Positions 16,444 through 52,980 of a stretch of 64,000 nucleotides of DNA are shown one piece after another. Source of the stretch: a virus; IMG/VR virus record IMGVR_UViG_3300031885_000003, positions 18,854-82,853 of that record; one strand, written 5' to 3'. The notes under the pieces were generated by a model. That model was given only the letters and a program-made list of their open reading frames with translations. It searched no databases and was not told the DNA's origin. Every line of letters begins with the position of its first letter. Position 1 is the stretch's first letter. The position numbers and the translations under genes are program-made.

Positions 16444-16494
16444 AGGTGTATCAAGTTGAGGTAAGGCAACGCCCGCGAGGGCAAGGAGGACGGA

Positions 16495-16872
16495 ATGAAA
16501 ATCACGCGAATTACAAACAGTCGGTTTGTGGTGCTGTCCGGCAACAAAACATATCAAGTGAACCACTATAAATCGGTCGGTCAAATGCGGTGGACGTGCA
16601 CCTGTCCCGCGCGGGGCGAGTGCAAACATTTGCGCACGGTGCGCGGTTGCGGGGGTCTTGGGGTAGGCGATAGCATCGAACTCGATGCCGTTCGCGGCAC
16701 GTCGTTTCTCGAACATGCCACGCCCCGCCCGGCGCGTGCAGTAAACGAGGACCCGGATTGCGAGGATCAGAATGAGGACTACGAGGACCAGCACATGATC
16801 GACGATGTTGGGCCGGAAATTGAGGCTGCTCGGCGCGGTCGTGGGGCATATCGCAAATTTTTAGGGTACTGA
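16495..16872 (+). CDS. SWIM zinc-finger early protein with acidic tail
   Basis: WTCTCP...CKH motif; AGGAGG RBS. Confidence 0.75.
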   Translation: MKITRITNSRFVVLSGNKTYQVNHYKSVGQMRWTCTCPARGECKHLRTVRGCGGLGVGDSIELDAVRGTSFLEHATPRPARAVNEDPDCEDQNEDYEDQHMIDDVGPEIEAARRGRGAYRKFLGY

Positions 16873-16902
16873 ACAACCGCCCGAGAGGGCAGGAGGACGG
16901 AA

Positions 16903-17172
16903 ATGATTACAAAACAGCAGGAAAAATTTCAGTGCGCAGTCCGGGAACGGCGCGCGAAACACCATCTGACGATCCACCTACAGCGCGATGCGCAGGCGAC
17001 GACAGCCTGTGGGCTGATCGATGCGAAAAACGTGATCAATGTTGATCTTCTGACCGGGCAGTTTACCCGTCCCGGCGTGCCCCTGAACGCACCGAATGAA
17101 TTCCTGTGTGTGCGCTGCCGAACGGCGCTCGGGGCTCTCTACCGGGCGAACTTAGCACGAATAGGCGAATAG
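16903..17172 (+). CDS. Small early protein (H...TACG...CxxC)
   Basis: AGGAGG RBS after hairpin. Confidence 0.7.
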   Translation: MITKQQEKFQCAVRERRAKHHLTIHLQRDAQATTACGLIDAKNVINVDLLTGQFTRPGVPLNAPNEFLCVRCRTALGALYRANLARIGE

Positions 17173-17261
17173 CCCCATTCCCGTCACGCGCACGCTACCC
17201 CAGGCGGGGCGACCGCGGGCGGGGTAAGAGTAAGAGACTAGGGAAACGAAAGGAGCGAGAA

Positions 17262-17531
17262 ATGCTAGTCGTCCTGATACACCCCGATGACGTTGACAAA
17301 TTGGACGAATTTTGTTTGCCCGATATGTACCGTTGGTGGCAGGGACATGCTATCCAACGCACTATCGGCGACGAGACCTGGTTTGAGGTTGGGAAACCCG
17401 GATGTAGACACCTAGCATTATACGGAGGTGTCAAACGACTGGCAAGTTTTGGTATACATGCACGGGTAGCACGACGCACATTGACGAGGGAACAACGCCA
17501 GCAGCGCATGTGGCGCGCCTATGGCGGCTAA
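17262..17531 (+). CDS. Small early protein
   Basis: AAGGAG RBS, MLVVLIHPDD start. Confidence 0.7.
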   Translation: MLVVLIHPDDVDKLDEFCLPDMYRWWQGHAIQRTIGDETWFEVGKPGCRHLALYGGVKRLASFGIHARVARRTLTREQRQQRMWRAYGG

Positions 17532-17547
17532 CGCCCGGGAGGGCAAG

Positions 17548-17707
17548 GGAGGGAGATTATGTTCGGAATATACAAGGATGGGAAAAAATCAAAACTATGG
17601 TTTTGCACGGCTCCTTTTGGGGCTCGGAAATTCGTTACTCGAAAGAAAGCGGCCGCCTTGGCGCGTCAAGTTGGCGGCAAAGTAGAAAAGATCAAATAAT
17701 CTCATCT
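17548..17707 (+). repeat. Direct repeat copy 1 (copy 2 at 63841-64000, cut by window end)
   Basis: 159/160 identical; G17580 vs A63873. Confidence 0.95.
17559..17699 (+). CDS. 46-aa basic early protein MFGIYKDGKKSKLWFCTAPFGARKF...
   Basis: RBS; duplicated at 63852-63992 (G8R). Confidence 0.75.
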   Translation: MFGIYKDGKKSKLWFCTAPFGARKFVTRKKAAALARQVGGKVEKIK

Positions 17708-17785
17708 CCGCCCCGCGCACGTTGCCCCAGGTGGGGCGACCGCGAGCGGGGTAAGGTAAGGGACCATGGAAACGAAAGGAGCGAT

Positions 17786-18064
17786 ATGGAAACGCGGAAA
17801 TGCCCAAACGTATTATGCCCCGGCACAATGTACCACTCTGACGACATGGAAAACCCGTTTGCCGGGACCGATGATCACACCCCATTTTGGCAGTGCGAGT
17901 TATGCGGGGATTGTCAACCGGAATACACCGCGGCACAGAAACGCCTAATCGAAGAACGGAGGCTAAACTCCCGCTGGGAAAATGCGACTGAGCATGAAAT
18001 GGCGACAACCCCGGAAACCGAGGAATACTCGGACGAACGGTACGACCAGGAGAATCAGGACTAA
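17786..18064 (+). CDS. Zn-ribbon early protein with acidic tail
   Basis: CPNVLC...CELC; AAGGAG RBS. Confidence 0.7.
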   Translation: METRKCPNVLCPGTMYHSDDMENPFAGTDDHTPFWQCELCGDCQPEYTAAQKRLIEERRLNSRWENATEHEMATTPETEEYSDERYDQENQD

Positions 18065-18167
18065 TTCCGCCCCGCACGCTGCCCCAGGCGGGGGATCGAC
18101 GTGGACGCTAACAGCCTATGAGGGCGAGGAGAACGGCATGGAAGAAGGAGCACAGCGATATTACCGG

Positions 18168-18244
18168 TGGGGTGCTCGTTTTTAGGGGGTCAATTGCTAC
18201 TATAGTCTTGCTATCAACGGGGTTAAGGGTGCTCGATTCACAGG
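18168..18244. repeat. 77-bp perfect inverted repeat, copy 1 (copy 2 at 34414-34490)
   Basis: Base-by-base reverse-complement identity. Confidence 0.95.
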
Positions 18245-18344
18245 ATTATGTGGAACGGGAAAACGCATAGGGCGACCGGCGGCGGGATAGGGATAGAGCG
18301 CCACGGGAAACAACGCGCCGGAGAGCGCAAAGGGAGACGTGAAC

Positions 18345-18479
18345 ATGATTAAGCATTGCACACAATGCGGGGAAAAACACGAAGAATTAGAACCCTGTCC
18401 AGAACCAATTCTTAAGAAATGGTTCCCCGGTGTGAAAGGAATCGGGCCGGATGGGAAGCCGTTAAAAGGTATTTGGTAA
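18345..18479 (+). CDS. 44-aa Cys-containing early protein
   Basis: GGGAG RBS after GCGC hairpin; CTQC motif. Confidence 0.55.
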   Translation: MIKHCTQCGEKHEELEPCPEPILKKWFPGVKGIGPDGKPLKGIW

Positions 18480-18720
18480 CAACGCGCCACGGCGCAGAAA
18501 GCCTGAATATGAACCACGCGGCGATAGAAGCGGCTCGGGACCGGGCCCACCACGCGCAATTGCGACACCTGGTCGCCGCCGGCGACATTGCCGATTACCC
18601 GAAATGGTAGAAACGGCTCAAGCGGTTGTTATGCGGGCCAGATGTGGTAGACGACGAAAACGGGAGTCTGCATGCGCGAGTGCGTGCAGCTCTAAAACTG
18701 GTGGATGAAAGGATCGGAGT

Positions 18721-21675: not shown

Positions 21676-21823
21676 TGTCAATCCTCCATATATATCGCGC
21701 AGACTGCTTTTGCGCCATCCGTATAGGATAGTACACCGATAATGCACGTCCTGTCAAGGGGTTGCAGAATTATACACAGACCATATATTTTTCTTGACAA
21801 AACAAGCCACCTGTCTATACACT
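21676..21823. promoter_or_regulatory. Divergent immunity promoters
   Basis: Leftward TTGACA(21757-21752)-18-TACTAT; rightward TTGACA(21794)-18-TACACT. Confidence 0.65.
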
Positions 21824-23086: not shown

Positions 23087-23483
23087 CGACAAGTTGCCCG
23101 AGTTGGATGGGCCGATTCAATTGCAGTTGGAACATGTCAACGGCACGCTCAGGGAAGTCGCTCTGGCCTGCAACTACGACGTGGTTCTGAAAATCATCCC
23201 GGGGCCATACGGCGGCCTCCAATTGCTGGTGCCACCGGATCCGAAACCAATCTACGAGATGCGTGGCGAGCTGTGCGGTTTCCGGGCCAGGCCCATAGAG
23301 TTCGACGACGAAGCCAAGGCCCGCGAAAAGTACCTCTGGCACGTCTCACAAGTCGGCCCCTCGCCACATAAGATCCAACTGGTCAAAGTGACTCGGGTGG
23401 GCGACGAGAAGGAGCGTGAAGAAGTGCTAGCAGAGGATATTGTGAGCGTAGCGGAGGCACACGCCGACCCCGACAACTTCTAA
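23061..23483 (+). CDS. Hypothetical protein
   Basis: AAGGAG RBS; 140 aa. Confidence 0.65.
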   Translation: MNWKILGVDDKLPELDGPIQLQLEHVNGTLREVALACNYDVVLKIIPGPYGGLQLLVPPDPKPIYEMRGELCGFRARPIEFDDEAKAREKYLWHVSQVGPSPHKIQLVKVTRVGDEKEREEVLAEDIVSVAEAHADPDNF

Positions 23484-23495
23484 CTTCTCTGATCT

Positions 23496-23984
23496 CGGTG
23501 CGCCGCCAGGCAGGTTCGCAGCCCGCCCTCACGCCCCCTCTGATCCCCATCAGAGACACACGGCGGCGCACCGCTTGAAAGTTGAAGATTTTAGGTGTGC
23601 TGTGGCCGAGGAATGCGTGACGGGCGCGAGAAATCGCGTTGGTAAGCGACGACGGCTTACGGTCGGCTCGACGATGGGGTAAGGAACAGACCCTTAGAGC
23701 AGCAAGTAGGTCAGCCGGGCGCGGGTGATTTTACCCGTAGTAACAGTACAGGCCGAGATAACGCCAGACAGCCACAGCACACCGATTTTCCAGCGGCGGT
23801 AAATACTCGCGAGCGCCGCTGGTTCTCCAGTGCGCGGCGTTTCAATGGTCTCGCAACCCCCAAGGGCGCCGCGCACTGGTCTCCACAACGGGAAGGGGGT
23901 GGTTTATGAAGTAAAGACTAACTTCTCCCATTTAACGATGCAAGCAGCACGGGGGCGGGTCAGACAGACGCCGGCCCGCCCCCG
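23496..23984 (+). ncRNA. Cluster of six consecutive structured RNA elements
   Basis: Closing stems 23496/23573 (12 bp), 23594/23783 (13 bp, multibranch), 23790/23822, 23827/23879 (13 bp), ~23890/23929, 23950/23984; no credible ORF. Confidence 0.6.
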
Positions 23985-24566
23985 CAAAGAAAGGGGACTA
24001 TGGGATCAAAAGCGATTTTCGCCGGCACAATCAACCCGCCACGCAACGGTGTGTTCAAGACACTATAGGCCGTGCCCGATAGTTGGGAGGCCGAGTGCAT
24101 GACGCTCCAATCGTCGTTGCGCGACGCGCTGGCGGCGGAGAAGGACGCGATCATCGCCAGACTGAGGAACGACCTGGAGAAGGCACGGAGGTTGGAACAA
24201 CGTTTATGAATAAAAAAGATCCTGATGAGACGATGAGGCAAATTCGGTCAGAGCAACGCGAACGCCTCCGGGACCGGTTCGCAATGGCGGCGCTGACAGG
24301 GTTGCCTACAACCGAACAGACGCCAGAGCATCTTGCAAAAACAGCCTACAGAATAGCCGACGCCATGCTGGCCGAGCGGGAGAAGACACCATGTTCCTCT
24401 CCTTCCTAAACCTATTCCGCCGCCCGCGTTGCGCCGACTGCCAGCGCAAAATTAAGCGGGGGCAAGTAAGCATCAGGGTCGCAAATCTTGACGATTTTCT
24501 CGGGTATAGGTGGGTAAAACTCTGTGCGTCCTGCTACTGGGAAGCGACCAAAGGATTCACTGACTG

Positions 24567-24797
24567 ATGAAACGCCAACTGTCGCTTGTGAAGATCAAGA
24601 CGATGGGCGATGCCCTCGCCTACTGCCGGATGCAACGGGGAATCAGTCAGGAGCGACTATTTGAACGTTCAGGCGTACCGCAATCTACGATCAGCAGATT
24701 CGAGCGAGACTTCGACGTGCGGGTGTCAACGGTATTGAAACTTTGCAAAGCCATGGGTGTGCCGTTGAGCGAACTCGCGGCGATGGCAAGGGTGTAG
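24567..24797 (+). CDS. XRE-family HTH protein
   Basis: ISQERLFERSGVPQSTISRFER. Confidence 0.8.
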   Translation: MKRQLSLVKIKTMGDALAYCRMQRGISQERLFERSGVPQSTISRFERDFDVRVSTVLKLCKAMGVPLSELAAMARV

Positions 24798-24799
24798 TG

Positions 24800-25681
24800 A
24801 TGAAAGAAACATTTCAAAATATTAAGTTGAGCAAACTCCGACTCGCCGCCGCAAACCAAGCCGACGTCATCCTTGAAGAATATGCCCTGGGCGGATGGAT
24901 CCTGACGCTGCGGCAACTCTACTACCAGTTCGTCGCGCGCGGCCTACTGGAGAATACCGAGCGCAATTACAAGTGGCTCGGATCCGTCGTCAATGACGGC
25001 AGACTCGCGGGCCTTCTCGACTGGGACCACATAACCGACCGAACTCGCACCTGTCAAGTCGTCAGCACATGGGACTCTCCACAGGACATTATCCAAGCCT
25101 CAATCGACTGCTACCGTATTGACCTCTGGAAAAACCAGCTATATCGGATTGAAGTGTGGGTAGAAAAAGACGCTTTGATTGACGTCGTTGGCCGTGCCGC
25201 AAACTTGGCTCAACTCCCGTACTTTTCCTGTCGCGGATACTGTAGCCAGAGCGCCATGTATGGGGCTGCAAAACGCCTTGAGAAATACATAGAAGCCGAT
25301 CAAATGCCCTACATTCTCTACTTCGGCGACCACGATCCAAGTGGAATCGACATGGCGCGAGACATCCAGGTCCGCCTCAATCTGTTCTTGGACAATCCAC
25401 GGATGCACTTTGACCGTCTCGCGCTGACGATGGAGCAAATCGACCAGTACTCACCGCCGCCAAACCCGGCAAAACTCACCGACTCCCGGTGTCGCGGATA
25501 TATGGATGAATATGGCGAGGAGAGTTGGGAGCTTGATGCGCTTGAGCCTAACGTGATTGTCGAACTCATAACGAACAAGATGGCCGGCCTCAAAGACCAT
25601 ACGGCATGGAAGAAAATGACGGCCGTGCAAAAACGGGATAAAGACACGCTCAAAAACCTGTTGGGGAAAATCAGCGACTAA
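24800..25681 (+). CDS. Spo11/Topo VI-A-like protein (winged helix + TOPRIM)
   Basis: TLRQLYY (cf. Spo11 TxRDxYY catalytic Tyr), VWVEKDAL, GDHDPSG, WELDAL. Confidence 0.75.
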   Translation: MKETFQNIKLSKLRLAAANQADVILEEYALGGWILTLRQLYYQFVARGLLENTERNYKWLGSVVNDGRLAGLLDWDHITDRTRTCQVVSTWDSPQDIIQASIDCYRIDLWKNQLYRIEVWVEKDALIDVVGRAANLAQLPYFSCRGYCSQSAMYGAAKRLEKYIEADQMPYILYFGDHDPSGIDMARDIQVRLNLFLDNPRMHFDRLALTMEQIDQYSPPPNPAKLTDSRCRGYMDEYGEESWELDALEPNVIVELITNKMAGLKDHTAWKKMTAVQKRDKDTLKNLLGKISD

Positions 25682-25985: not shown

Positions 25986-26942
25986 ATGATTAAATATCGT
26001 TCTACCCCTGTAAAAATCTGGAACGATCTTGCCTTTTGTTCCCTATCTGATGATGCCCAACTTGTCTATTTTTTTGTCCGCACGCATCCCAACATGGCCG
26101 CGTGCGGAGCCATGCGAGCAACATTATCGGGACTCGCACAAGAAAAACACTGGGGTGAAAAGAGATTTACAGCAGCCTTCACGGAGCTTACAAAGGTGGT
26201 TGAGTACCGAGTTGATGAAGTACGCGGTTGTGTGGCCGTGATGGATTTGTTAGAAACGAACAGACCTATAAATGCAAAGTCCATACAGGGTTATATCAAC
26301 TCCTTTGACACGATACCTGATTGTAAGTTGAAACTAGAACTAATGCGACGGCATGCAAAACAATACCCACAGTTAGAAGAAAAGTTAGCTAACTTTTCCC
26401 TAACTTTCTCCGAACTTTTAGAGGGCCAACAAGAACAAGAACAAGAACAAGAACAAGAACCCCCTATTTCCCCCAACGAAAAACTCCAAAAAGTTCTCAC
26501 CGAACACCCAGGCGCAGAAGTCGTTCACGTCAAACTTCGCAGCAAGATTCTCGAAGCACATCCGAATGCCAAACTGCCAGAGCCGACCCGAGAACCCAAA
26601 AAGTATCTCGATGGTTTGATGACGATTGTGAACCTCATTAAGCGGGACCGCTTCACGTCAACAGACCTTGAGGCTCTTTGGTGGGTTTTTGAGTCAGACG
26701 ACGACGAGGCGATCTTCTGGCGACAACAACTATGCGGAGTGCCGGGCCTCAGAAGGGTGTGCAAGAACGGCATGACCAAATTCGCGTCGATTCACGAGCG
26801 ATGGGGTGACGCAGTGGCGGGAAAAGGGATAGACCCTAGCGGCAAACACCAATTTACGTCCCGAGAACTTGCTGGATTCGAGGCCGAGGAACGGTTACAG
26901 GCGGAACGGAAACAGCGGGAGGGTACAAAATGCCAGTCATAG
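25986..26942 (+). CDS. Replication initiator-like protein
   Basis: KYR...KIWND..F..LSDDAQL N-terminus, QEQEQEQE linker; directly upstream of DnaB. Confidence 0.75.
   Translation: MIKYRSTPVKIWNDLAFCSLSDDAQLVYFFVRTHPNMAACGAMRATLSGLAQEKHWGEKRFTAAFTELTKVVEYRVDEVRGCVAVMDLLETNRPINAKSIQGYINSFDTIPDCKLKLELMRRHAKQYPQLEEKLANFSLTFSELLEGQQEQEQEQEQEPPISPNEKLQKVLTEHPGAEVVHVKLRSKILEAHPNAKLPEPTREPKKYLDGLMTIVNLIKRDRFTSTDLEALWWVFESDDDEAIFWRQQLCGVPGLRRVCKNGMTKFASIHERWGDAVAGKGIDPSGKHQFTSRELAGFEAEERLQAERKQREGTKCQS
26371..26460. other. Probable replication origin inside the initiator gene
   Basis: Perfect 20-bp palindrome GAAAAGTTAGCTAACTTTTC (26379-26398), further CTAACTTT repeats, (CAAGAA)n tract. Confidence 0.6.
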
Positions 26943-28366
26943 CAGACGGCATACCCCCCCACAATCTCGAAGCTGAACAGGCCGTCATTGGGGCGATCCT
27001 ACTGGACAACGACGCGGTATCGGACGTGGTAAACATCATCGGTCGGTCGAATGAAATGTTCTATTCCGCCACACACCAAGCCATTTATTCGGCCATGCTT
27101 GCCATCATCGACAAAGGGCGGCCGGTAGACGGCATCACCCTTGCCGAACAACTGCGGGAAGACGGCAAGTACGAGCTGGGCGGCGGCGTCACGTACATCG
27201 GTGAGATTGTCGATGCCGTACCCACTGCGGCCAATGTGGCCTACTATGCGGAAATCGTCCGCCACTGCCATATCCGGCGAGAAGTCCATCGAGTCTGCAC
27301 TCGCCTTGCAGCCGAATCCCTTGAGGCTGATTCCTCATGCGACTCAGATTGGCTCGACAAAGCCCACAGCGGGCTCCTGGCGCTTTTTGAACATCGGGAT
27401 CGGCATTATCCCCTACCCGCGATTGAAATCGTCTCAGGCGCCCTTGCAGAGATTCAGGCGGTGGTTGACGGGAAACCGCGAAACGAAGGATGGACTACAG
27501 GGTATACCAGTTTGGATGCAGTACACGGCGGGTTTGTGCCGAATCTCTACATCTATGCCAGCCGACCGTCGGTAGGCAAGACGACCTTGGCCGCAAACAT
27601 CGCCTGCCACGTTGCGGCAGGGGGCCACCCGACCCTTTTCTTCGCCCTCGAGATGTCGGACGCCCAAATGATGCGGAAGATCCTGATGTTCCGGGCCGGG
27701 GTGAATTGGGGGCAAGTTCGCGCGGGATTTAACGCACGAAGCCAACTGGACAAAGTGCGGTTTATCGCCCCGGGCATCGGCCGCTGGCCTCTGTGGATTG
27801 ATGACACACCAAACCTGACGCCGAACGCCCTCCGGGCGAAAGTGCGAAAACATATCCATCAGCACGGCCCAACACTCGTCATCATCGACTATCTGCAACT
27901 CATGGATATCCCGCAGGCACGAGGCCAGAACCGATATGAAGCTCTAGGCGGTGTTTCGCGCACACTGAAAAACCTGAGCGGCGAACTCGAATGCCCCTTC
28001 ATCGGCATATCACAACTCGGCAGGGACGCGGATGGCGTTGATCCCAAAATATCTCACCTGCGGGAATCGGGCAATTTCGAGCAGGACGCGGATGTGATCA
28101 TCCTTCTGTCCCGCTACCTCAAACCCGAGATAACTGAACTCCACAAAGCAGGTAGATATCTTAACGTCGATTTCGACCGGATCGTGAAGGTTCACATTGC
28201 GAAAAACCGTGAAGGTGAGACGGGAGTAGTGCAGATGATTTTCGATAAGTCGGTACAACAGTTCCGAGAACCCGGACAGCCTGAAATAGAATGCGACGCA
28301 GAAACGGGCGCCTCGATTGCGCCCGATCCACAAGCGAATCCAGAAACAGATGAGATACCATTCTGA
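26930..28366 (+). CDS. dnaB: Replicative DNA helicase
   Basis: PPHNLEAEQAVIGAIL, SRPSVGKTT, IIDYLQL, SQL, LRESGNFEQDAD, KNREG. Confidence 0.95.
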   Translation: MPVIADGIPPHNLEAEQAVIGAILLDNDAVSDVVNIIGRSNEMFYSATHQAIYSAMLAIIDKGRPVDGITLAEQLREDGKYELGGGVTYIGEIVDAVPTAANVAYYAEIVRHCHIRREVHRVCTRLAAESLEADSSCDSDWLDKAHSGLLALFEHRDRHYPLPAIEIVSGALAEIQAVVDGKPRNEGWTTGYTSLDAVHGGFVPNLYIYASRPSVGKTTLAANIACHVAAGGHPTLFFALEMSDAQMMRKILMFRAGVNWGQVRAGFNARSQLDKVRFIAPGIGRWPLWIDDTPNLTPNALRAKVRKHIHQHGPTLVIIDYLQLMDIPQARGQNRYEALGGVSRTLKNLSGELECPFIGISQLGRDADGVDPKISHLRESGNFEQDADVIILLSRYLKPEITELHKAGRYLNVDFDRIVKVHIAKNREGETGVVQMIFDKSVQQFREPGQPEIECDAETGASIAPDPQANPETDEIPF

Positions 28367-28393: not shown

Positions 28394-28849
28394 ATGACGA
28401 GAGGCTATTCGGCGATCGGCCTGTACCAGCCCAAGACGCCCGCAAACATCGGCGGCGTTCTGCGGGCAGCGGACTGTTACGGCGCGGCGCTGGTGGCCGT
28501 GCAGGGGCAGCGGTATAAGCGGATCGGAACGGACACGCTGGCGAGTTACCGCCACATCCCCTTGTTGAACGTGCCGGACCTGCACGAGTGTGTGCCCTAT
28601 GACTGCATCCCCATTGCGATTGAGAGAGCCGATGGTGCAAAACCGATTCAAGATTTCACCCATCCCGAGCGGGCATTCTACGTGTTCGGCCCGGAAGACG
28701 GGAGCGTGCCGAAGGCTGTACAGGAATGGTGCAAGTGCGTGGTCTATATCCCAACGTGGCATTGTATGAACCTAGCGGCAACGGTGAACGTGGTGCTGTT
28801 TGACCGCGCCATGAAGCGCGGGGAATGGTCAAAAGGGGGTGACGCCTGA
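28394..28849 (+). CDS. SpoU/TrmH-family (SPOUT) RNA methyltransferase
   Basis: PANIGGVLRAA, YVFGPEDG, YIP...MNLAA..VVLFD motifs. Confidence 0.88.
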   Translation: MTRGYSAIGLYQPKTPANIGGVLRAADCYGAALVAVQGQRYKRIGTDTLASYRHIPLLNVPDLHECVPYDCIPIAIERADGAKPIQDFTHPERAFYVFGPEDGSVPKAVQEWCKCVVYIPTWHCMNLAATVNVVLFDRAMKRGEWSKGGDA

Positions 28850-29983: not shown

Positions 29984-32900
29984 TGGGAAAGAAAGTCGAG
30001 ATTGACTCGGAAGTGTTGGCCGAGATTCTGCGCACACATTCGCCAGCCTGTTGTCTAGTGGCCGCTGGTATTATCGCCGCTGCCGGCTGCGACGAGAAGG
30101 GTAGGCCGGTGCCCCTGACAGTAGGCGAAATTCAAGTAGTGATTGACCATACAAAATCGACAACTTGGCCGATACGCAAGGTGTGTGACGGGGAATCGCT
30201 GGGTGATCGTGAATGGGTGCTGGCCACCCCCGCCGAACTCGCCCGTCTGCGCAAAGAACTTGGCGTGTCGAAGCCGGAAAAGACCTGTATGACCTGCGGC
30301 GATGCTGATGATTGTCACGTCAGCAAAACTGTAACGTGTAGGCGTTGTGGCTATCTACACTGACTGATCCAAGCGTGATATTTCTATGCGCCGTTATTGT
30401 TGTGCTAGTGATATGCTGGGTTGTTACATTCAGGAGGTTGCCATGAGCATGACTGACGCCGAACTCCAAGAACGCGTTGAAGCGCTGGCCGAGAAGATAC
30501 GCCATGACATAGTTGTTGTTGCTGCAAATACAATGGCAAGCACACTACTATGCGAACACGATCTTGTTCTCTATCACGCCGCCATGTTCGCCGCCCGCGC
30601 GCAGGGGGCGAAGGCAGAGCGGGAACGGTGTGCAGAAGATATAGTCATCGCCCGTTGTAGCATTTGCCCCCACCAAGACGATCCCGAGCGCGAGACATGT
30701 GACAGATGCGAAACATATGCAGCCTTAAAAGCCATCCGCAACCCGGCCGCCGAAACAGGGAAGGAGCACTAATGGGCTTTACGCTTCATCTTGGAAAACA
30801 CTACGCTGCATGTGGCTATCATATTGCTGATTGGCATCCGTTTGTTACCACAGATCCACAAGAAGTCACCTGTGATGAGTGTCGTGAATTGATGTCAGAC
30901 GCAACCCTTATACTTCGAGGAGTAGCGGCACTATTAGCACAAGAGGTAGCGCCCGAAATGGGGAAGGAGCAAGCCGATGCCAACCCCCGGAATAAACCGA
31001 TGACCCCTGAGCGCCTGAAGGAAATCAAGGCAGCCGTAGGCGAAACAAAAACCTATCACCGGCCAGATTGTGAGTGTACGTTTTGCACGCATGTTTTGCC
31101 GCTGTGCGATGAAGTCGAGCGGCTACAGGCGCGAGTGGTAGAGTTGGAAGCAGAATTGCACCCAACGTTCAGGGTCCTCAAGGACATTGGCCTGAGCGTT
31201 GTAGACCCTCATATTATGTCATTCCCACTCTTACAGGCACCAAATGAAGAAGAGATTTTCGATGACACAGATGACTCTGCTTTTGAAGGTTAAGGAGACC
31301 CCCGATGCCAACGTATGACGTGACGCCGATGACGCCGGCGGAAGTAGAGGATGTACGTCGCTGCGTCGGTGAAGCAACTCATGGTGGTGCCCGATTATTA
31401 AAACGTTTTCTCGCCAGTCTCGACGCCGCGAACACGGTGCTGCGGGAGTTGGGGCAGCAAGCGCAGTCTTCGCTAGACATCTACGACAAGGAAATTATGG
31501 TTACGGTGTTAAAGGCCGTCATCGCGGCGGCGGAAAAGGTGAAGGCGTGATGTGCCAATGCCAAGCCCGGCAACGCCTAAAGAGCCTATCCAAACATGCC
31601 CGGAAAGTTTACCGGGTCCGCAAAAGACGATTCATCGGTTGGCGAACAACCGCGCAACTATACGCAGATGCGCTAGGTGAACTAGTAGAGGCCGTCCATG
31701 CGGCGGCGAGAGGAGAAACATGATGGGGCCGAACGTCCTAACGTTTCTGAACCAGTTCAAGAAATACAGCCAGAGGCAACTAGATAACATGCCCTACGAG
31801 GTTTTGCGCAGCTTAGTAATTGGTTGCATCAAAGCAGTCGCAGCCGATGCCGCCAGGGCGGACGGCGAGAAAGGAGATGGAAGTGATAACACCTGAGCAG
31901 GAATTGAAAGATACCATTGCGAGTTTGAGTGCTGACAACGACTGCCTCAAGGAAGACACCACGGCACTGGGACTAGAAGCGGACCAGCTGAAGGAGGCGC
32001 TGGCGACGGCGAAGGAAGAACAGGAAGGGGCACAAGAAGAATCAGACGGCAACACAGATCGCCGTCCAACAATTGAGGAGCTTGAAGCGATCCTTGGTAG
32101 AGATGACGAGACGGCTGTTGACATTTTGCCGAACGGCGAAGTTGTCGTAGAACGGCGACCGCGATCTGACGATAACCCGAAACCACTTACTTTCCGCGAT
32201 AATCTTGGGGGTGAATATACACCGGATGTAACGATGAGAGGAGAGACATGATGCTTGGATTTGCGATCTCATTGTCGATAATAGATGTAATCCTGACCTT
32301 GATAATTATTTCTAATGAACTGTACCGCATAGCCAACGCGCTTGAGTGGAGAAAGGACAAGTGATGGGACCGAATGTGTTGACGTTCCTAAACCAGTTTC
32401 AGAAATATAGTCAGTACCAACTGGACCACATGCCATATGAGATTCTACGCAGTCTAGTAACTGATTACCTGAAGACAGTCGCAGCCGATGCCGCTAGGTT
32501 AGGCAGCAAGAAAGGAGAGAGAACGTGAGTAAATTTAGGATTGAATACCGCACCGTCAATTGTCACAAGGGGCCGCAGGACACGGGCGGCCTGGTGACGC
32601 ATGAGCAATATGAAGTCTGTACGGAAGACGATTGTATTGCGATTTTCTTCAACGCAAAACTTGCGCAAGAGTATGTTGCCCTTCGCGCCGACAACGACCG
32701 CCTCCTCGCGCCCGCCGAGGTGTTCCCGCTATGGACATACATCAAAGAGGAAGTCGAGGTTAGGAAATGGAGTATCAACATGTTGTGCCGTGCATCGGGG
32801 TTGACCATTTTTATAATTGAGGCAATATCTCGGCGGGAACCCATCACCCCCGAGATCGCCGCCGCCCTTGGCCGCGCGTTCGGCACTTGCGCGGAAAGGT

Positions 32901-33392
32901 GGCTGAATTTTGACCGCCGGTGGCAGAAACGGAAACAGGCGCTCGCGCAGGCGGAAGGAGAGGCACCGTGAAGATCAAGCGGTACTGCACATGTGGCGGA
33001 TACCAGACCGGAACAATCGTGCGGATGCCCCGGTTACAGGCCCAAGCGGATGCAATCTGGGCGGAACATACCGGACCCGGCCATGCCCCGTGTGACGCCA
33101 AGACCGCGACAAATGCGAGGCGTAACCAGGAGCGCCGCGCCGAGAGGGCGGAAGGAGAGGCGACGTGAATCAGGAACGTATAGATAATCTGTTAAGCGGT
33201 ATCCGAAACGTCGCGTTAGCTCTTAGGAAGACAATCGAGAATCCCGAACCAGGCGACTCCGTTAGAAAGTTGAGCGAGGAAGAATGGATCGAACTTTATA
33301 GACTCGTTGGGCTTCTTCAAAAAAACGTGCAACAGATTCAGCAGGAACAGGGGTTGCCATTATTGATGGTCGAAACGGAGAAAGGGACGTGA
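29983..33392 (+). other. Run of small, translationally coupled accessory genes (includes paralogues 31720-31896 and 32364-32528, and a HigA-like HTH at 32525-32971)
   Basis: ATGA/GTGA overlaps and AAGGAG RBSs; ITPEIAAALGRAFGTCAERWLN resembles the HigA/VapI HTH. Confidence 0.65.
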
Positions 33393-33721
33393 TGAGCATG
33401 AATGAACTTGCACACCAGATTCATGAATACGCCAAGGATAAAGGCTGGTACGACACGCACCCGAGCGTCGGTGAAATGTTGGCAAATGTCCACGCCGAAG
33501 TTAGCGAGGCGCTGGAAGAGTGGCGCAACGACCACATGGGCAAGTATTTTGGAGAAGGCCACGATTGTAAGCCGTGCGGTTTTCCCTCAGAGATGGCCGA
33601 CATCATTATCCGCGTGCTGGACATCTGCGCGTCGTTCGACATCGACATCGACGCGGAAGTGTCGGCTAAGATGCAATACAACCAGACGCGCCCTTACCGC
33701 CACGGGGGCAAACTAGCATGA
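33389..33721 (+). CDS. MazG-like nucleotide pyrophosphohydrolase
   Basis: HAEVSEALEE...SEMADIIIRVLD...KMQYN..RPYRHGGK. Confidence 0.85.
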   Translation: MMSMNELAHQIHEYAKDKGWYDTHPSVGEMLANVHAEVSEALEEWRNDHMGKYFGEGHDCKPCGFPSEMADIIIRVLDICASFDIDIDAEVSAKMQYNQTRPYRHGGKLA

Positions 33722-34523: not shown

Positions 34524-35218
34524 TTGATGGGCGCACTATTGTCTATACATACCGCGGCCAGGTTCAGCGCCGCGATAAGGGCGGGAAACTTTATTGGTGT
34601 TGTGGCTATAACGACTATTCCTATGGTCTCATGATGACGAAAAAGGAATGCCGCACCGAAGCCGCCGCCGAAGGTGTTAGAGCCGTATTCGTGGGCCGTG
34701 GTAAAGCGAAAGGTAGGCAGGCATGAAAGCAGAATACTGGGCGGTTTTCAAATGGGGGCGGCTGATGGACTGTGGCAGTGGAGGATAGAGACGTGAGCAC
34801 AACGCGCGGACCAATAGACTTGGTTTGTGATGAATGCCAGAATTGGAAGGGTGGCAACCCCGGCGAGACGGCACGATTTATTCGGAAACTCTATAGAGCC
34901 GATGGATGGGAACGCTATAGGATTGATGGGGAACTGAAAGATTTATGTCCCGCGTGTCTCGGGAAGGACGAAGGATATTGGTGGTAGAGAAAGGTGGGCA
35001 GGTATGAGCGCAACACAACGGCGGGCGAAACGCGAGGCGCGGGAAGCATATGAGCGGGCGCACCAAGAGCGGGTCGAGTGTGAGAGCGCGATCTTGGCGT
35101 CCTACCGCGGTAGCCTGGTTCCACGCCACCCACAACGGGTCATAAAAGCATTCTACCGCGCGCTGCTTGCCGCCGAACGTGACGCCAAGGCCGCACTGGA
35201 TGCGGCGAAGGAGGGAAT

Positions 35219-35491
35219 ATGAGCACGTCAACCCCTGCTCGCATACGGGCATGGGCTACGCGGCGGCGTCTTTATGGTGCAAGCGGCCACCGCGGCTCAT
35301 ATGTCAGACACAAAGCAATACTCTGTGTTCGTTGTGAACGCATGACGCGGCTCATCGTGAAATTATATGCGGAGGGAACATTAAGCGAAGGGCAAGCGGC
35401 GAAAGCCACTGGACGTGGCCGCGTCTGGTTGCGAATAGCCGCCGAAACTGAGGCTGAGGCCGCACTGGATACGGTGAAGGAGAAACTATGA
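35219..35491 (+). CDS. Paralogue of 29717-29983
   Basis: Near-identical motifs. Confidence 0.65.
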   Translation: MSTSTPARIRAWATRRRLYGASGHRGSYVRHKAILCVRCERMTRLIVKLYAEGTLSEGQAAKATGRGRVWLRIAAETEAEAALDTVKEKL

Positions 35492-38719: not shown

Positions 38720-39310
38720 ATGGCGGGTAATGCCCAAAAAAAGAAGCCCTATAATATCAAGGCTTTAGCCGACATTTCTCCTGATCCGAAAAATGCGAAT
38801 CGTGGTACCGAACGTGGCCTCGGGATGCTTGATCAATCACTCCGCACATACGGCGCAGGCCGCTCAATCCTATGCGACCGCAAGGGCGTGGTGATCGCCG
38901 GCAACAAGACACTCGAACGTGCTGCCGACATCGGCATGGACGTGGAGGTAATCCAGAGCGACGGCACCCGGCTCGTGGTGGTACAGCGGACCGACTTGGA
39001 CTTGGCGGAAGGCGGGGCCGCGCGTGAACTGGCCTATGCCGACAACCGGGCGGGGCAGGTCGGGCTTGACTGGGACCCGGCAGTATTGGCGGCGGACCTC
39101 GCGGCGGGGGTTGACCTGGACAAGTTCTGGCTACCGGGGGAGATGGAATTGATCGGGCCAGAAAAAGAGTCGGAACCGCTAGATGCCTCACCACAACTTG
39201 GCGCACTGGAATACCGGATCGTCGTGACGTGCCGGGACGAAGAACACCACGCCGAAGTCTTGTCGATGCTTCAAAAAGAAGGGCTTGAATGCAAAGTTTT
39301 GATATCGTAG
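38720..39310 (+). CDS. ParB/Srx-N-like protein
   Basis: PDPKNAN...SL..YG.GRSI..D...IAGN...ADNR. Confidence 0.75.
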   Translation: MAGNAQKKKPYNIKALADISPDPKNANRGTERGLGMLDQSLRTYGAGRSILCDRKGVVIAGNKTLERAADIGMDVEVIQSDGTRLVVVQRTDLDLAEGGAARELAYADNRAGQVGLDWDPAVLAADLAAGVDLDKFWLPGEMELIGPEKESEPLDASPQLGALEYRIVVTCRDEEHHAEVLSMLQKEGLECKVLIS

Positions 39311-40416
39311 TTGAAAGCGATGTATCCGCCTCTGCGCGGTGTAGGCAACTGGAAGGCATGTTCGATGTGCCGCCGTCGAAACGATCGCGCCTACAGTTCA
39401 CTGGCGAACTCGATCTCGACTCGCAACCCTGGAGCGTGGGCCTGATTGTCGGCCCGTCCGGGGCGGGCAAGTCCACAATCGCTAAGTACCTCTTTCCCGC
39501 TGAATATGGGCGTACTTACGAATGGGGCAAACAGAGCGTTATAGACGACTTCTCAGAGACGCTTTCGGTTGCGGACATATCGAGCGTATGTCAGGCGGTC
39601 GGGTTCAACACTATACCGGCGTGGCTACGCCCATTCGCCGTGCTTTCCACTGGCGAGCGATTCCGAGTGGAACTTGCCCGCAACCTTATCGAAGGCGGCG
39701 ATCTCATTGTAATGGACGAATTCACGTCCGTTGTGGATCGGCAAGTCGCGCAGATCGGCGCGAACGCAGTCCAGAAATACGTGAGACGAAACGGAAAACG
39801 ATTTGTGGCCGTCTCGTGTCATAGCGACATAATCGACTGGCTTCAACCTGATTGGATCTACGAACCGGCGTTGTCCAGGTTCGTAAGGGGGTTAGTTCGG
39901 CGACGCCCAAGCATGGAGGTCGAAATCACAAGAGTCAATTATGAAGCGTGGAAACTATTCGCTCCATTTCACTATCTGACGGCAGAACTAAACCGGGTGG
40001 CGAAATGTTTCGGGCTTTGGATTGGTGGGCGCTTAACGTCCTTTGCCGGATTGCTCTGCCGCCCAACCAAGAAAGCGGATCTATGGGGTGTGAGTAGGCT
40101 TGTAACGCTACCAGACTGGCAGGGGCTGGGATTGGCAATGATACTGGCGTGCAAGATGGGCGGGGCGCACAAAGCCATTGGCAAGCGGCTCCATACCTAT
40201 CCCGCGCATCCGAGCCTTATGAGGTCGTTTGATAAATCGCCGGAATGGGCGCTCATAAAGAAGCCAGGAGAATTCAAGGGCAAGGAAAACCAAAAGGGGT
40301 TTAAAGCCATGAAGGGAAACCGCATAGATCCGAATAACGAGGGCCGTCCCTATGCCGTGTTTGAATATTGCGGTCTAGCAATGGACCGCGCAGAAGCGGA
40401 GGCCCTACTTGCGTAA
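39289..40416 (+). CDS. ABC-type ATPase fused to GNAT acetyltransferase
   Basis: GPSGAGKST, LSTGE, VMDEF, SCH; C-terminal SRLVTLPDWQGLGLA acetyl-CoA motif. Confidence 0.85.
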   Translation: MQSFDIVVESDVSASARCRQLEGMFDVPPSKRSRLQFTGELDLDSQPWSVGLIVGPSGAGKSTIAKYLFPAEYGRTYEWGKQSVIDDFSETLSVADISSVCQAVGFNTIPAWLRPFAVLSTGERFRVELARNLIEGGDLIVMDEFTSVVDRQVAQIGANAVQKYVRRNGKRFVAVSCHSDIIDWLQPDWIYEPALSRFVRGLVRRRPSMEVEITRVNYEAWKLFAPFHYLTAELNRVAKCFGLWIGGRLTSFAGLLCRPTKKADLWGVSRLVTLPDWQGLGLAMILACKMGGAHKAIGKRLHTYPAHPSLMRSFDKSPEWALIKKPGEFKGKENQKGFKAMKGNRIDPNNEGRPYAVFEYCGLAMDRAEAEALLA

Positions 40417-40764
40417 CGTCACAATGCGCGGCTCCTGGCCTTTGGGCTGGACTTCGACACGGAAGAACCCGAGATGCCCTTTCGCCGGAATCGGATTGAT
40501 CCGCCGGACGTTGGCGATAACCCAAGCGTACATGTTCGGGATGTGCGCGATACAAGCGGCGTCTTCGTCTGCGCGTACAAACGGGCGGCACTCGATAATG
40601 TCAAACACGGCAATCGCAAAACCCGCGGGGTATATTGCGGGCGACGCCGAGGAACACAAGAGCACCTGCGCTCGGGGAGGCGTGCTCCACTGGCGGATCT
40701 CCAACGTTTTCCGCCCCTGGGCGATCATGTTCGCCCAAGGCTGTTTGACGCTAAGCGCAATCAT
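40405..40764 (-). CDS. ASCH domain protein
   Basis: ALSVKQPWANMIAQGRKTLEIRQWST...KGHLGFF. Confidence 0.85.
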   Translation of the reverse strand: MIALSVKQPWANMIAQGRKTLEIRQWSTPPRAQVLLCSSASPAIYPAGFAIAVFDIIECRPFVRADEDAACIAHIPNMYAWVIANVRRINPIPAKGHLGFFRVEVQPKGQEPRIVTLRK

Positions 40765-52056: not shown

Positions 52057-52980
52057 ATGTCGGACACAGTGGCAAACCGCGTAAGTGGCGGTGCAAAAAT
52101 CTATATTGCGGTAGAAACTACGTCGTTGCCCGCGTTGACCGGAAGCACAATCACGCTGACAAACAATGACGTCCAGACCATTACCAAAACCGGGACTGTA
52201 TCAGGCGGCACGGCAACTATTGAAGTTATCTATGCGGATGCATCAAGCGAGACCACCGCAGCGATTGCGTTCGATGCAGACGCTGCGGCAATCAAAGCCG
52301 CGCTAGCCGCGCTTGACAATCTTGATGCCGCAGATCTTACCGTCACTGGCGGGCCGTTTTCGACAAACCCCGTAATAATCACGTTTGGCGGAACGTATGC
52401 CAACACGCCGATGACATTGATTGAAATCGATGATGCGCTTATTACGGGCGGCGGTACGCTGGCCCCATCGCACACCACGACTGGCCGGACTTGGACAGAA
52501 CTGCCAGACATCGTTGGCGATTACAAGGTCAAGCGGATACACACCACGAAACCGCACGAGGATGCATTTGCCCCACACCCCACTGGTTCAACCACACTCA
52601 AGGTCGGTATCGACCAAATGACCTATACCATCGAAGAGTCTGACCTCGATGCGCACAACATCGGCATCACGGCTGCGCGTGAATTGCTAGATGTGATTCC
52701 GGCGGGCGCGGGCCAGTCCGGACAGGAATCGCTCTTGCAGCCATTGCCCGCGGACATCGATGCATCGATCTACACGATCCTTGCGGTTACACAAAACAAT
52801 GCGGGCGGCTGGAAAAAGCTTGAACATTTCTTCAAGTGCAAGCGCAAACACGATTACGAACAGAGCTACAAGAGCGGCGAACCCAATACGATTGACATTA
52901 CGTGGGAAGTATTCGCCGATAGTACTAACGACTACCGGTGCTCCAAAAAATACGAGTACAAAACCGCAGCCACAAGCTGA
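52057..52980 (+). CDS. Major tail tube protein with inserted Ig-like domain
   Basis: Synteny; insert VQTIT...GGT.T...TTAAIAFDA.AA.IKAALAAL...VTGGP. Confidence 0.75.
   Translation: MSDTVANRVSGGAKIYIAVETTSLPALTGSTITLTNNDVQTITKTGTVSGGTATIEVIYADASSETTAAIAFDADAAAIKAALAALDNLDAADLTVTGGPFSTNPVIITFGGTYANTPMTLIEIDDALITGGGTLAPSHTTTGRTWTELPDIVGDYKVKRIHTTKPHEDAFAPHPTGSTTLKVGIDQMTYTIEESDLDAHNIGITAARELLDVIPAGAGQSGQESLLQPLPADIDASIYTILAVTQNNAGGWKKLEHFFKCKRKHDYEQSYKSGEPNTIDITWEVFADSTNDYRCSKKYEYKTAATS

Follow-up and report, generated by a model that had tools for sequence, protein, structure and literature searches.

The early operon of an 82.8-kb phage from a sediment metagenome (IMG/VR virus record G000, 94% complete) contains a tract without a protein-coding gene that is tiled with closed hairpins. 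This raises the question of whether the tract specifies an RNA, controls the gene behind it, acts as DNA or has no function of its own. The window analysed is a 64-kb stretch covering bases 18854-82853 of the record, and its numbering is used throughout. Two back-to-back, sigma-70-like promoter sites at 21728-21823 (TTGACA-18-TACACT on the plus strand, TTGACA-18-TACTAT on the minus strand) are likely to be the divergent early promoters of the phage. A rightward operon of small genes begins at this PR-like pair and the tract sits about 1.7 kb behind it within that operon, so the early location given in the original prediction holds. Downstream of the replication genes and SpoU (Table 1) lie genes for SSB and RusA. 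The portal protein of the phage is at most 34% identical to actinophage portals.

The limits of the gap depend on where the next gene starts. The ORFs inside it are short, and indels in a near-identical 1258-nt metagenome contig (L076) disrupt the sole long one, 23830-24102. L076 matches the window exactly over 23370-23840 and again from about 23936, and it contains an intact 103-aa ORF starting at the ATG equivalent to window position 24000 and preceded by AAAGGGGA; since this frame marks the true start of the downstream gene, the gap is taken as 23484-23999. It has no conserved ORF, as had been claimed for some 490 nt of it. The window copy of the downstream coiled-coil gene is 34 aa shorter than that of L076 through an in-frame deletion, and an in-frame TAG at 24066-24068 splits its frame; a GGGAGG site with an ATG at 24099 could permit a restart.

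Table 1. Coordinates of the gap, its structured elements (E1-E6) and the surrounding genes, in window numbering; z values are against shuffled sequences.
Feature	Position	Strand	Description
ORF, 189 aa	22517-23086		two genes upstream of gap; weak EndoVII/HNH PHROG matches, E 1e-5
ORF, 140 aa	stop at 23483		last gene ahead of gap; from ORF list
Non-coding gap	23484-23999	+	516 nt; between stop of 140-aa ORF (23483) and ATG 24000
E1	23496-23573	+	78-nt three-way junction; perfect 12-bp stem CGGTGCGCCGCC/GGCGGCGCACCG; inner CTCTGAT-CCCC-ATCAGAG hairpin
E2 5' flank	23580-23593	+	AU-rich, AGTTGAAGATTTTA; common to window and G001
E2	23594-23783	+	190-nt multibranch; P1 of 13 bp GGTGTGCTGTGGC/GCCACAGCACACC, 23594-23606 with 23771-23783
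E2 GAAA-capped hairpin	about 23624-23641	+	
E2 AUUU-capped hairpin	23721-23738	+	
E2 3' flank	23784-23798	+	GATTTTCCAGCGGCG, conserved in G001; last 9 nt are the E3 5' arm
E3	23790-23822	+	9-bp hairpin CCAGCGGCG/CGCCGCTGG, 15-nt loop; z -3.4
E4	23827-23879	+	hairpin of 13-16 bp; z -5.1
E5	23890-23929	+	weak hairpin, z -1.6; Shine-Dalgarno-like run 23893-23902 pairs with CTTCTCCC (23922-23929)
E6	23950-23984	+	GC-rich hairpin CGGGGGCGGG/CCCGCCCCCG; abuts ribosome-binding site; z -3.7
Coiled-coil protein gene	24000-24209	+	small protein; first gene after gap; from L076 comparison
Topo VI-A-like gene	24743-25681		downstream of gap
DnaD-like initiator	25986-26942		downstream of gap
DnaB	26930-28366		downstream of gap
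SpoU	28394-28849		downstream of gap

Every stem of the original prediction was recovered where it had been placed. Compared with shuffled sequences, E1 folds at -42.4 kcal/mol (z -5.85 on the plus strand, -4.59 on the minus strand), E2 at -79.7 kcal/mol (z -4.1) and the entire gap with z -5.1 on the plus and -4.3 on the minus strand. A native control, in which the whole genome was folded in 200-nt windows stepped by 50 nt and energy was regressed on GC, gives a different picture: the total folding energy of the gap windows is ordinary (z -0.1 to -2.2). The expected excess of folding energy is present against shuffles, therefore, but not against native genomic sequence. The exceptional feature is the run of long perfect closed helices and not the bulk MFE. 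The 82.8-kb genome has 24 perfect inverted repeats with an arm of at least 10 and a loop of at most 200, and the 490-nt stretch holds four of these where about 0.14 would be expected, together with three of the four in the genome whose arms reach at least 12.

None of these structures belongs to a described family in the collection searched. With Rfam 15 (4227 models, which include tRNA, tmRNA, RNase P, 6S, SRP, Y RNA, GOLLD, ROOL, group I and II introns, small ribozymes and riboswitches) no match passed the gathering thresholds in the 64-kb window, and E-value mode on the gap returned noise only (20 bits against a 52-bit threshold), in keeping with the prediction of a densely structured non-coding tract outside any Rfam family. 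ARAGORN found no tRNA or tmRNA gene in the window or in the whole 82.8-kb genome, as the predicted lack of a cloverleaf implied, and at relaxed thresholds made spurious calls only, with 'introns' of 200-550 nt. E1 was considered as a decayed tRNA and rejected, its local alignment to the tRNA-Leu of the related phage described below being no better than those of shuffles. The suggestion of tRNA mimicry is not supported by any of these three results. Likeness by eye to RNase P, SRP or Y RNA was likewise set aside, there being no covariance-model score and no TROVE gene. A scan for intrinsic terminators (GC-rich hairpin, 3-8-nt loop, U tract) found none on the plus strand between 20200 and 25000, and the sequences trailing the gap hairpins, CUUGAAAG, GAUUUUCC, UUCUCCAG, UCUCCACA and CAAAGAAA, contain no U tract, so that the reported lack of a strong one is correct for this strand. 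The 'TCTCCA' tail to which attention had been drawn is lost in L076. Apparent 'CCA tails' behind E3 and E4 were also discarded: that behind E3 consists of the three bases with which the E4 stem begins, and neither is kept in L076.

Relatives of the tract are rare. The gap and E2 have no blastn match in 50,697 phage records and 72,556 plasmids, E2 meets chance matches of 20-34 nt only in about 800 Desulfobacterota and Chloroflexota genomes, and the flanking 140-aa protein has no relatives in IMG/VR. The Topo VI-A-like gene has relatives at 47 viral and 27 genomic loci, at no more than 54% protein identity; none of the 74 loci shows similarity to the gap by blastn or nhmmer, and a covariance model run on the 47 viral records found no match to the gap. 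An exact 20-mer from E2, used in an exact-word search of IMG/VR, led to a sole match, L077, in a complete 73-kb phage (G001). G001 shares 23580-23798 with the gap at 89% identity, as well as the 20-nt 3' arm of E6 with its ribosome-binding site, and the rest is unalignable. The E2 homologue lies at L077:328-522 (G001:52026-52220), and the covariance model of E2 has one match in each of the two phages and none in the 47 other viral records. Of the elements of the gap, E2 alone has a counterpart in a second phage. With Rfam the corresponding tract of L077, too, gave only noise. The identity of 89% is by itself no proof of selection on E2, because the two phages have about 30 short segments in common at 72-98% identity with unrelated DNA between them, including window positions 16471-18501, 32840-33395, 35000-35226 and 38726-40748. 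One segment of G000 has a match at either end of G001 (85-311 and 72820-72989), and the G001 contig is therefore terminally redundant or circularly permuted.

The setting of E2 in the second phage is informative. It lies 75 nt downstream of, and on the same strand as, a tRNA-Leu(UAA) gene (ARAGORN; Rfam 60 bits), with a tRNA-Asn gene 1.3 kb upstream of E2. A 45-nt minihelix of acceptor and T-arm (L077:717-761, G001 about 52,415-52,459) follows E2 at a distance of about 200 nt; it comprises an acceptor-like stem, a small hairpin and a perfect T-arm, GGGGTTCGATTCCCC, ARAGORN makes no call for it and its mascRNA-like Rfam match is weak (E 1.6). Given these tRNA and minihelix neighbours, E2 resides in a stable-RNA neighbourhood in G001. 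It precedes exonuclease, HNH and RecE-like genes there, and for the protein downstream of it one relative was found, at 97%. DnaB and SpoU are absent from G001, as is any homologue of the G000 initiator. E2 is therefore independent of both the replication module and the methylase, and the proposed link between these RNAs and SpoU finds no support, this E2-bearing relative being without the gene.

Comparison of the two copies bears on the strand from which E2 would be read. All 49 predicted pairs of E2 are kept, with five one-sided changes and no two-sided change between the two distinct full sequences, a record that is compatible with RNA and is not statistical covariation. In G001, P1 carries three substitutions, each a C-to-U change at a 3'-arm position that faces G; these turn G-C into G.U on the plus strand and into A.C on the minus strand. 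Because these changes give G.U pairs, the G001 copy folds on the plus strand only (-73.5 kcal/mol, z -2.25, P1 intact; on the minus strand -56.4 kcal/mol, z +0.09, P1 lost), whereas in the window copy, with its perfect stems, the strands are indistinguishable by folding. The GAAA-capped and AUUU-capped hairpins are invariant between the phages, and the GAAA tetraloop is present on the plus strand only. The interior of E2 is under less constraint: the GTAAGC/GCTTAC hairpin that had been described is present in the window copy but is not kept in G001. As the indels between the copies are of 1-2 nt, the sequence is not coding. Scans found no promoter or terminator bracketing E2. Candidates for extra conserved helices or pseudoknots were rejected, since they clash with the GAAA hairpin or never vary.

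Three sequencing runs contain the gap, all as DNA contigs from sediment metagenomes, with no RNA run among them. In one of them, X1, a Logan contig joins unrelated upstream DNA exactly at 23580. A variant known from the Logan contigs of this run has T23738C, which converts the basal G.U of the 23721-23738 hairpin to G-C, and has 63 nt of the E2 centre replaced by 67 others. Further contigs in X1 share parts of E2 only, and a 35-nt unitig over the GAAA hairpin (23610-23644) has a depth of about 50 compared with 24-28 in its flanks; together these suggest that more E2 variants exist in these sediments.

The remaining hairpins behave differently from E2. E1 is identical in L076, has no homologue in G001 and is restricted to the window strain. 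Homology with G001 ends inside the loop of E3, so that the 5' arm alone is common, and its pairing partner in G001 is another sequence. In L076 the stem of E4 persists at 11-12 bp around a loop that is wholly exchanged for unrelated sequence folding into a longer apical hairpin, and the E5 stem shows a G.U to A-U change there. The loop of E5 holds a two-codon mini-ORF, ATG AAG TAA (23906-23914), which in L076 reads ATG ACC TGA, the order of start, codon and stop being kept despite four substitutions; a mini-ORF of this kind after a strong Shine-Dalgarno-like run resembles the bar minigenes of lambda. The 3' arm of E6 with its ribosome-binding site, CCCGCCCCCGCAAAGAAAGG, is found again in both G001 and the X1 variant, with a different gene behind it each time. 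The idea of six RNAs forming a unit is not sustained, given that E1 and E3-E5 have no homologue beyond the same strain and that E4 and E5 fall in a hypervariable patch. This patch (23841-23935 between the window and L076) begins inside the E4 loop and ends after E5. Homology breakpoints, whether with G001, L076 or the X1 variant, all lie inside hairpin loops or at hairpin feet. The 189-aa EndoVII/HNH-like ORF upstream, if a free-standing homing-type nuclease beside the RNA tract, could drive local mosaicism, as SegB does in the tRNA region of T4 (PMC2330249).

Taken together, E2 is probably an undescribed phage RNA gene. Its structure, its place in the enrichment of inverted repeats, the island of conservation, the strand asymmetry, the adjacency to a tRNA gene in G001 and the independence from the replication module and SpoU are direct observations. 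The more specific reading tentatively preferred here, given a little less than an even chance, is that E2 and its AU-rich flanks form a module for a new plus-strand structured RNA of the early operon. Such a module would comprise 23594-23783 and about 15 nt of conserved flank on each side, read from the plus strand. From these features it may be inferred that E2, having no promoter of its own, would be transcribed within the rightward early operon and that its RNA would be cut at the AU-rich single-stranded flanks, much as tRNA precursors are in RNase E-type cleavage. The 13-bp terminal helix would protect the product, which would accumulate as a stable RNA and might act in trans, its target being a factor of the host or the phage. 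Its genomic niche would be that of the stable RNAs and large ornate RNAs in the tRNA islands of other phages. E1, E3, E4 and E6 would be strain-specific punctuation, serving as exonuclease barriers or processing sites and stabilising the transcript, with E6 as a 5' hairpin beside the ribosome-binding site of the next gene. The small-RNA interpretation first offered for the whole tract is supported in part: E2 behaves as a gene-sized module with a conserved island, plus-strand pairing and a neighbouring tRNA, and the other elements are strain-specific. It is unlikely, but conceivable, that E2 founds a class of phage 'tRNA-island' RNA of about 200 nt that is excised and is catalytic or a decoy or sponge, with neighbouring hairpins shuffled at their loops; a decoy or sponge of this class could have as its target a host RNA-targeting defence or an RNA-processing enzyme.

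The main rival, though rather unlikely, is that the tract is a cis-acting leader of a portable kind. The next gene would then have E2-E6 as its 5' untranslated region, and E2 would act on the transcribing polymerase or on translation, for example as a put/EAR-like antiterminator that allows read-through of the strong hairpins E3, E4 and E6, or as a sensor by which the hairpins downstream are switched. E2 followed by the same E6 3' arm and ribosome-binding site stands ahead of three different genes (in the window, G001 and X1), E2 has no promoter of its own, in both phages a hairpin with the conserved arm CCAGC begins directly 3' of P1, another conserved sequence, ACAGUACA, offers an alternative partner to the 5' strand of P1, and the DNA-metabolism genes come after the tract in the early operon. 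However, the helices that switch in riboswitches are far less stable than a perfect 13-bp P1, the sequence from E2 to E6 is unrelated between the two phages, and in G001 E2 is surrounded by tRNA and tRNA-like genes. The put RNAs of HK022 and the EAR RNAs are cis-acting structured RNAs of processive antitermination, put being about 70 nt with two stem-loops and near its promoter. E2 would be like them in being a structured RNA of an early operon, ahead of strong hairpins and without its own promoter; it is unlike put in being a closed multibranch of 190 nt about 1.7 kb from the promoter, in having only hairpins without U tracts downstream, and it has no Rfam match.

Two further explanations do without an RNA product. 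An E2 that is a MITE, or a functionless remnant that has hitch-hiked through phage mosaicism, is improbable, although its length of about 190 bp, its 13-bp terminal inverted repeats and the GATTTT beside both ends (23584-23589 and 23784-23789) are MITE-like, E2 occurs in different neighbourhoods in related phages that have exchanged many short segments, and a weakly HNH/EndoVII-like gene is just upstream. Against this, each genome has a single copy of E2, with none in the other 47 viral records or in the collections of phages and plasmids, conservation runs some 15 nt past both repeats into flanks that are not mutual inverted repeats, the left GATTTT is offset by one base, and the repeat has decayed solely through G.U-compatible changes that keep RNA pairing on one strand. 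More improbable still is an element acting at the level of DNA, whose hairpins would extrude in single-stranded or supercoiled DNA for replication, as an origin or priming site, or for recombination. The perfect Watson-Crick stems of the window fold equally on both strands, the tract lies 0.7-3 kb upstream of the Topo VI-A-like gene, the DnaD-like initiator and DnaB, and the mosaic joints are inside hairpin loops, all of which would suit such a role. Nevertheless, neither the gap nor E2 has the marks of an origin with its own initiator: the gap contains no iterons or direct repeats and no AT-rich unwinding region, and initiator and helicase are not co-inherited with E2, which is conserved in G001 ahead of recombination genes in the absence of both. 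The three G:T mismatches in the G001 P1 moreover create a strand asymmetry that weakens the case for a function in DNA.

For the preferred reading of E2 as a plus-strand structured RNA, several known systems offer comparison. GOLLD and ROOL, the large ornate RNAs found in phages and prophages, are 'often near tRNA islands' (PMC12286853). They resemble E2 as phage-encoded non-coding multi-helix RNAs, the E2 homologue lying between a tRNA and a tRNA-like minihelix; they differ in length (about 580-800 nt as opposed to about 190 nt), in their pseudoknots and multimers, of which E2 gives no sign, and in their tRNA-island setting, the window phage being without any tRNA, and E2 has no Rfam match to either. 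The stable RNAs C and D of T4 (species 1 and 2) are small, lie beside the genes of the tRNA cluster, are co-transcribed and are cut from a precursor. E2 may be compared with them in its place beside a tRNA gene, although size and fold are not known to match, and its own processing would be by analogy. Y RNAs (YrlA/Yrn1), which are bound by Rsr/Ro60, occur in tRNA-related contexts in some phages and share with E2 a long terminal helix of the 5' and 3' ends that closes a multibranch module. E2 departs from them in lacking a T-arm and an Rfam Y RNA match, and in place of a bulged Ro-binding terminal helix it has a P1 whose 13 bp are perfectly paired, with no bulge. The Ro60/Rsr TROVE gene (PF05731) is absent from both G000 and G001, in a search that, among 14 control genomes, detected the gene in two, Deinococcus radiodurans and Bacteroides thetaiotaomicron.

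E2 is accordingly put forward as a candidate RNA, represented by two distinct sequences and known from DNA alone. The position of the mosaic joints and of the hypervariable patch inside loops hints at a role for long hairpins as boundaries between modules of these genomes. Structured RNAs beside phage tRNA genes, such as GOLLD, ROOL and the T4 stable RNAs, keep recurring and still lack an explanation; a new and much smaller family from uncultured sediment phages would add to them a tractable case of about 200 nt for probing, structure work and pull-downs.
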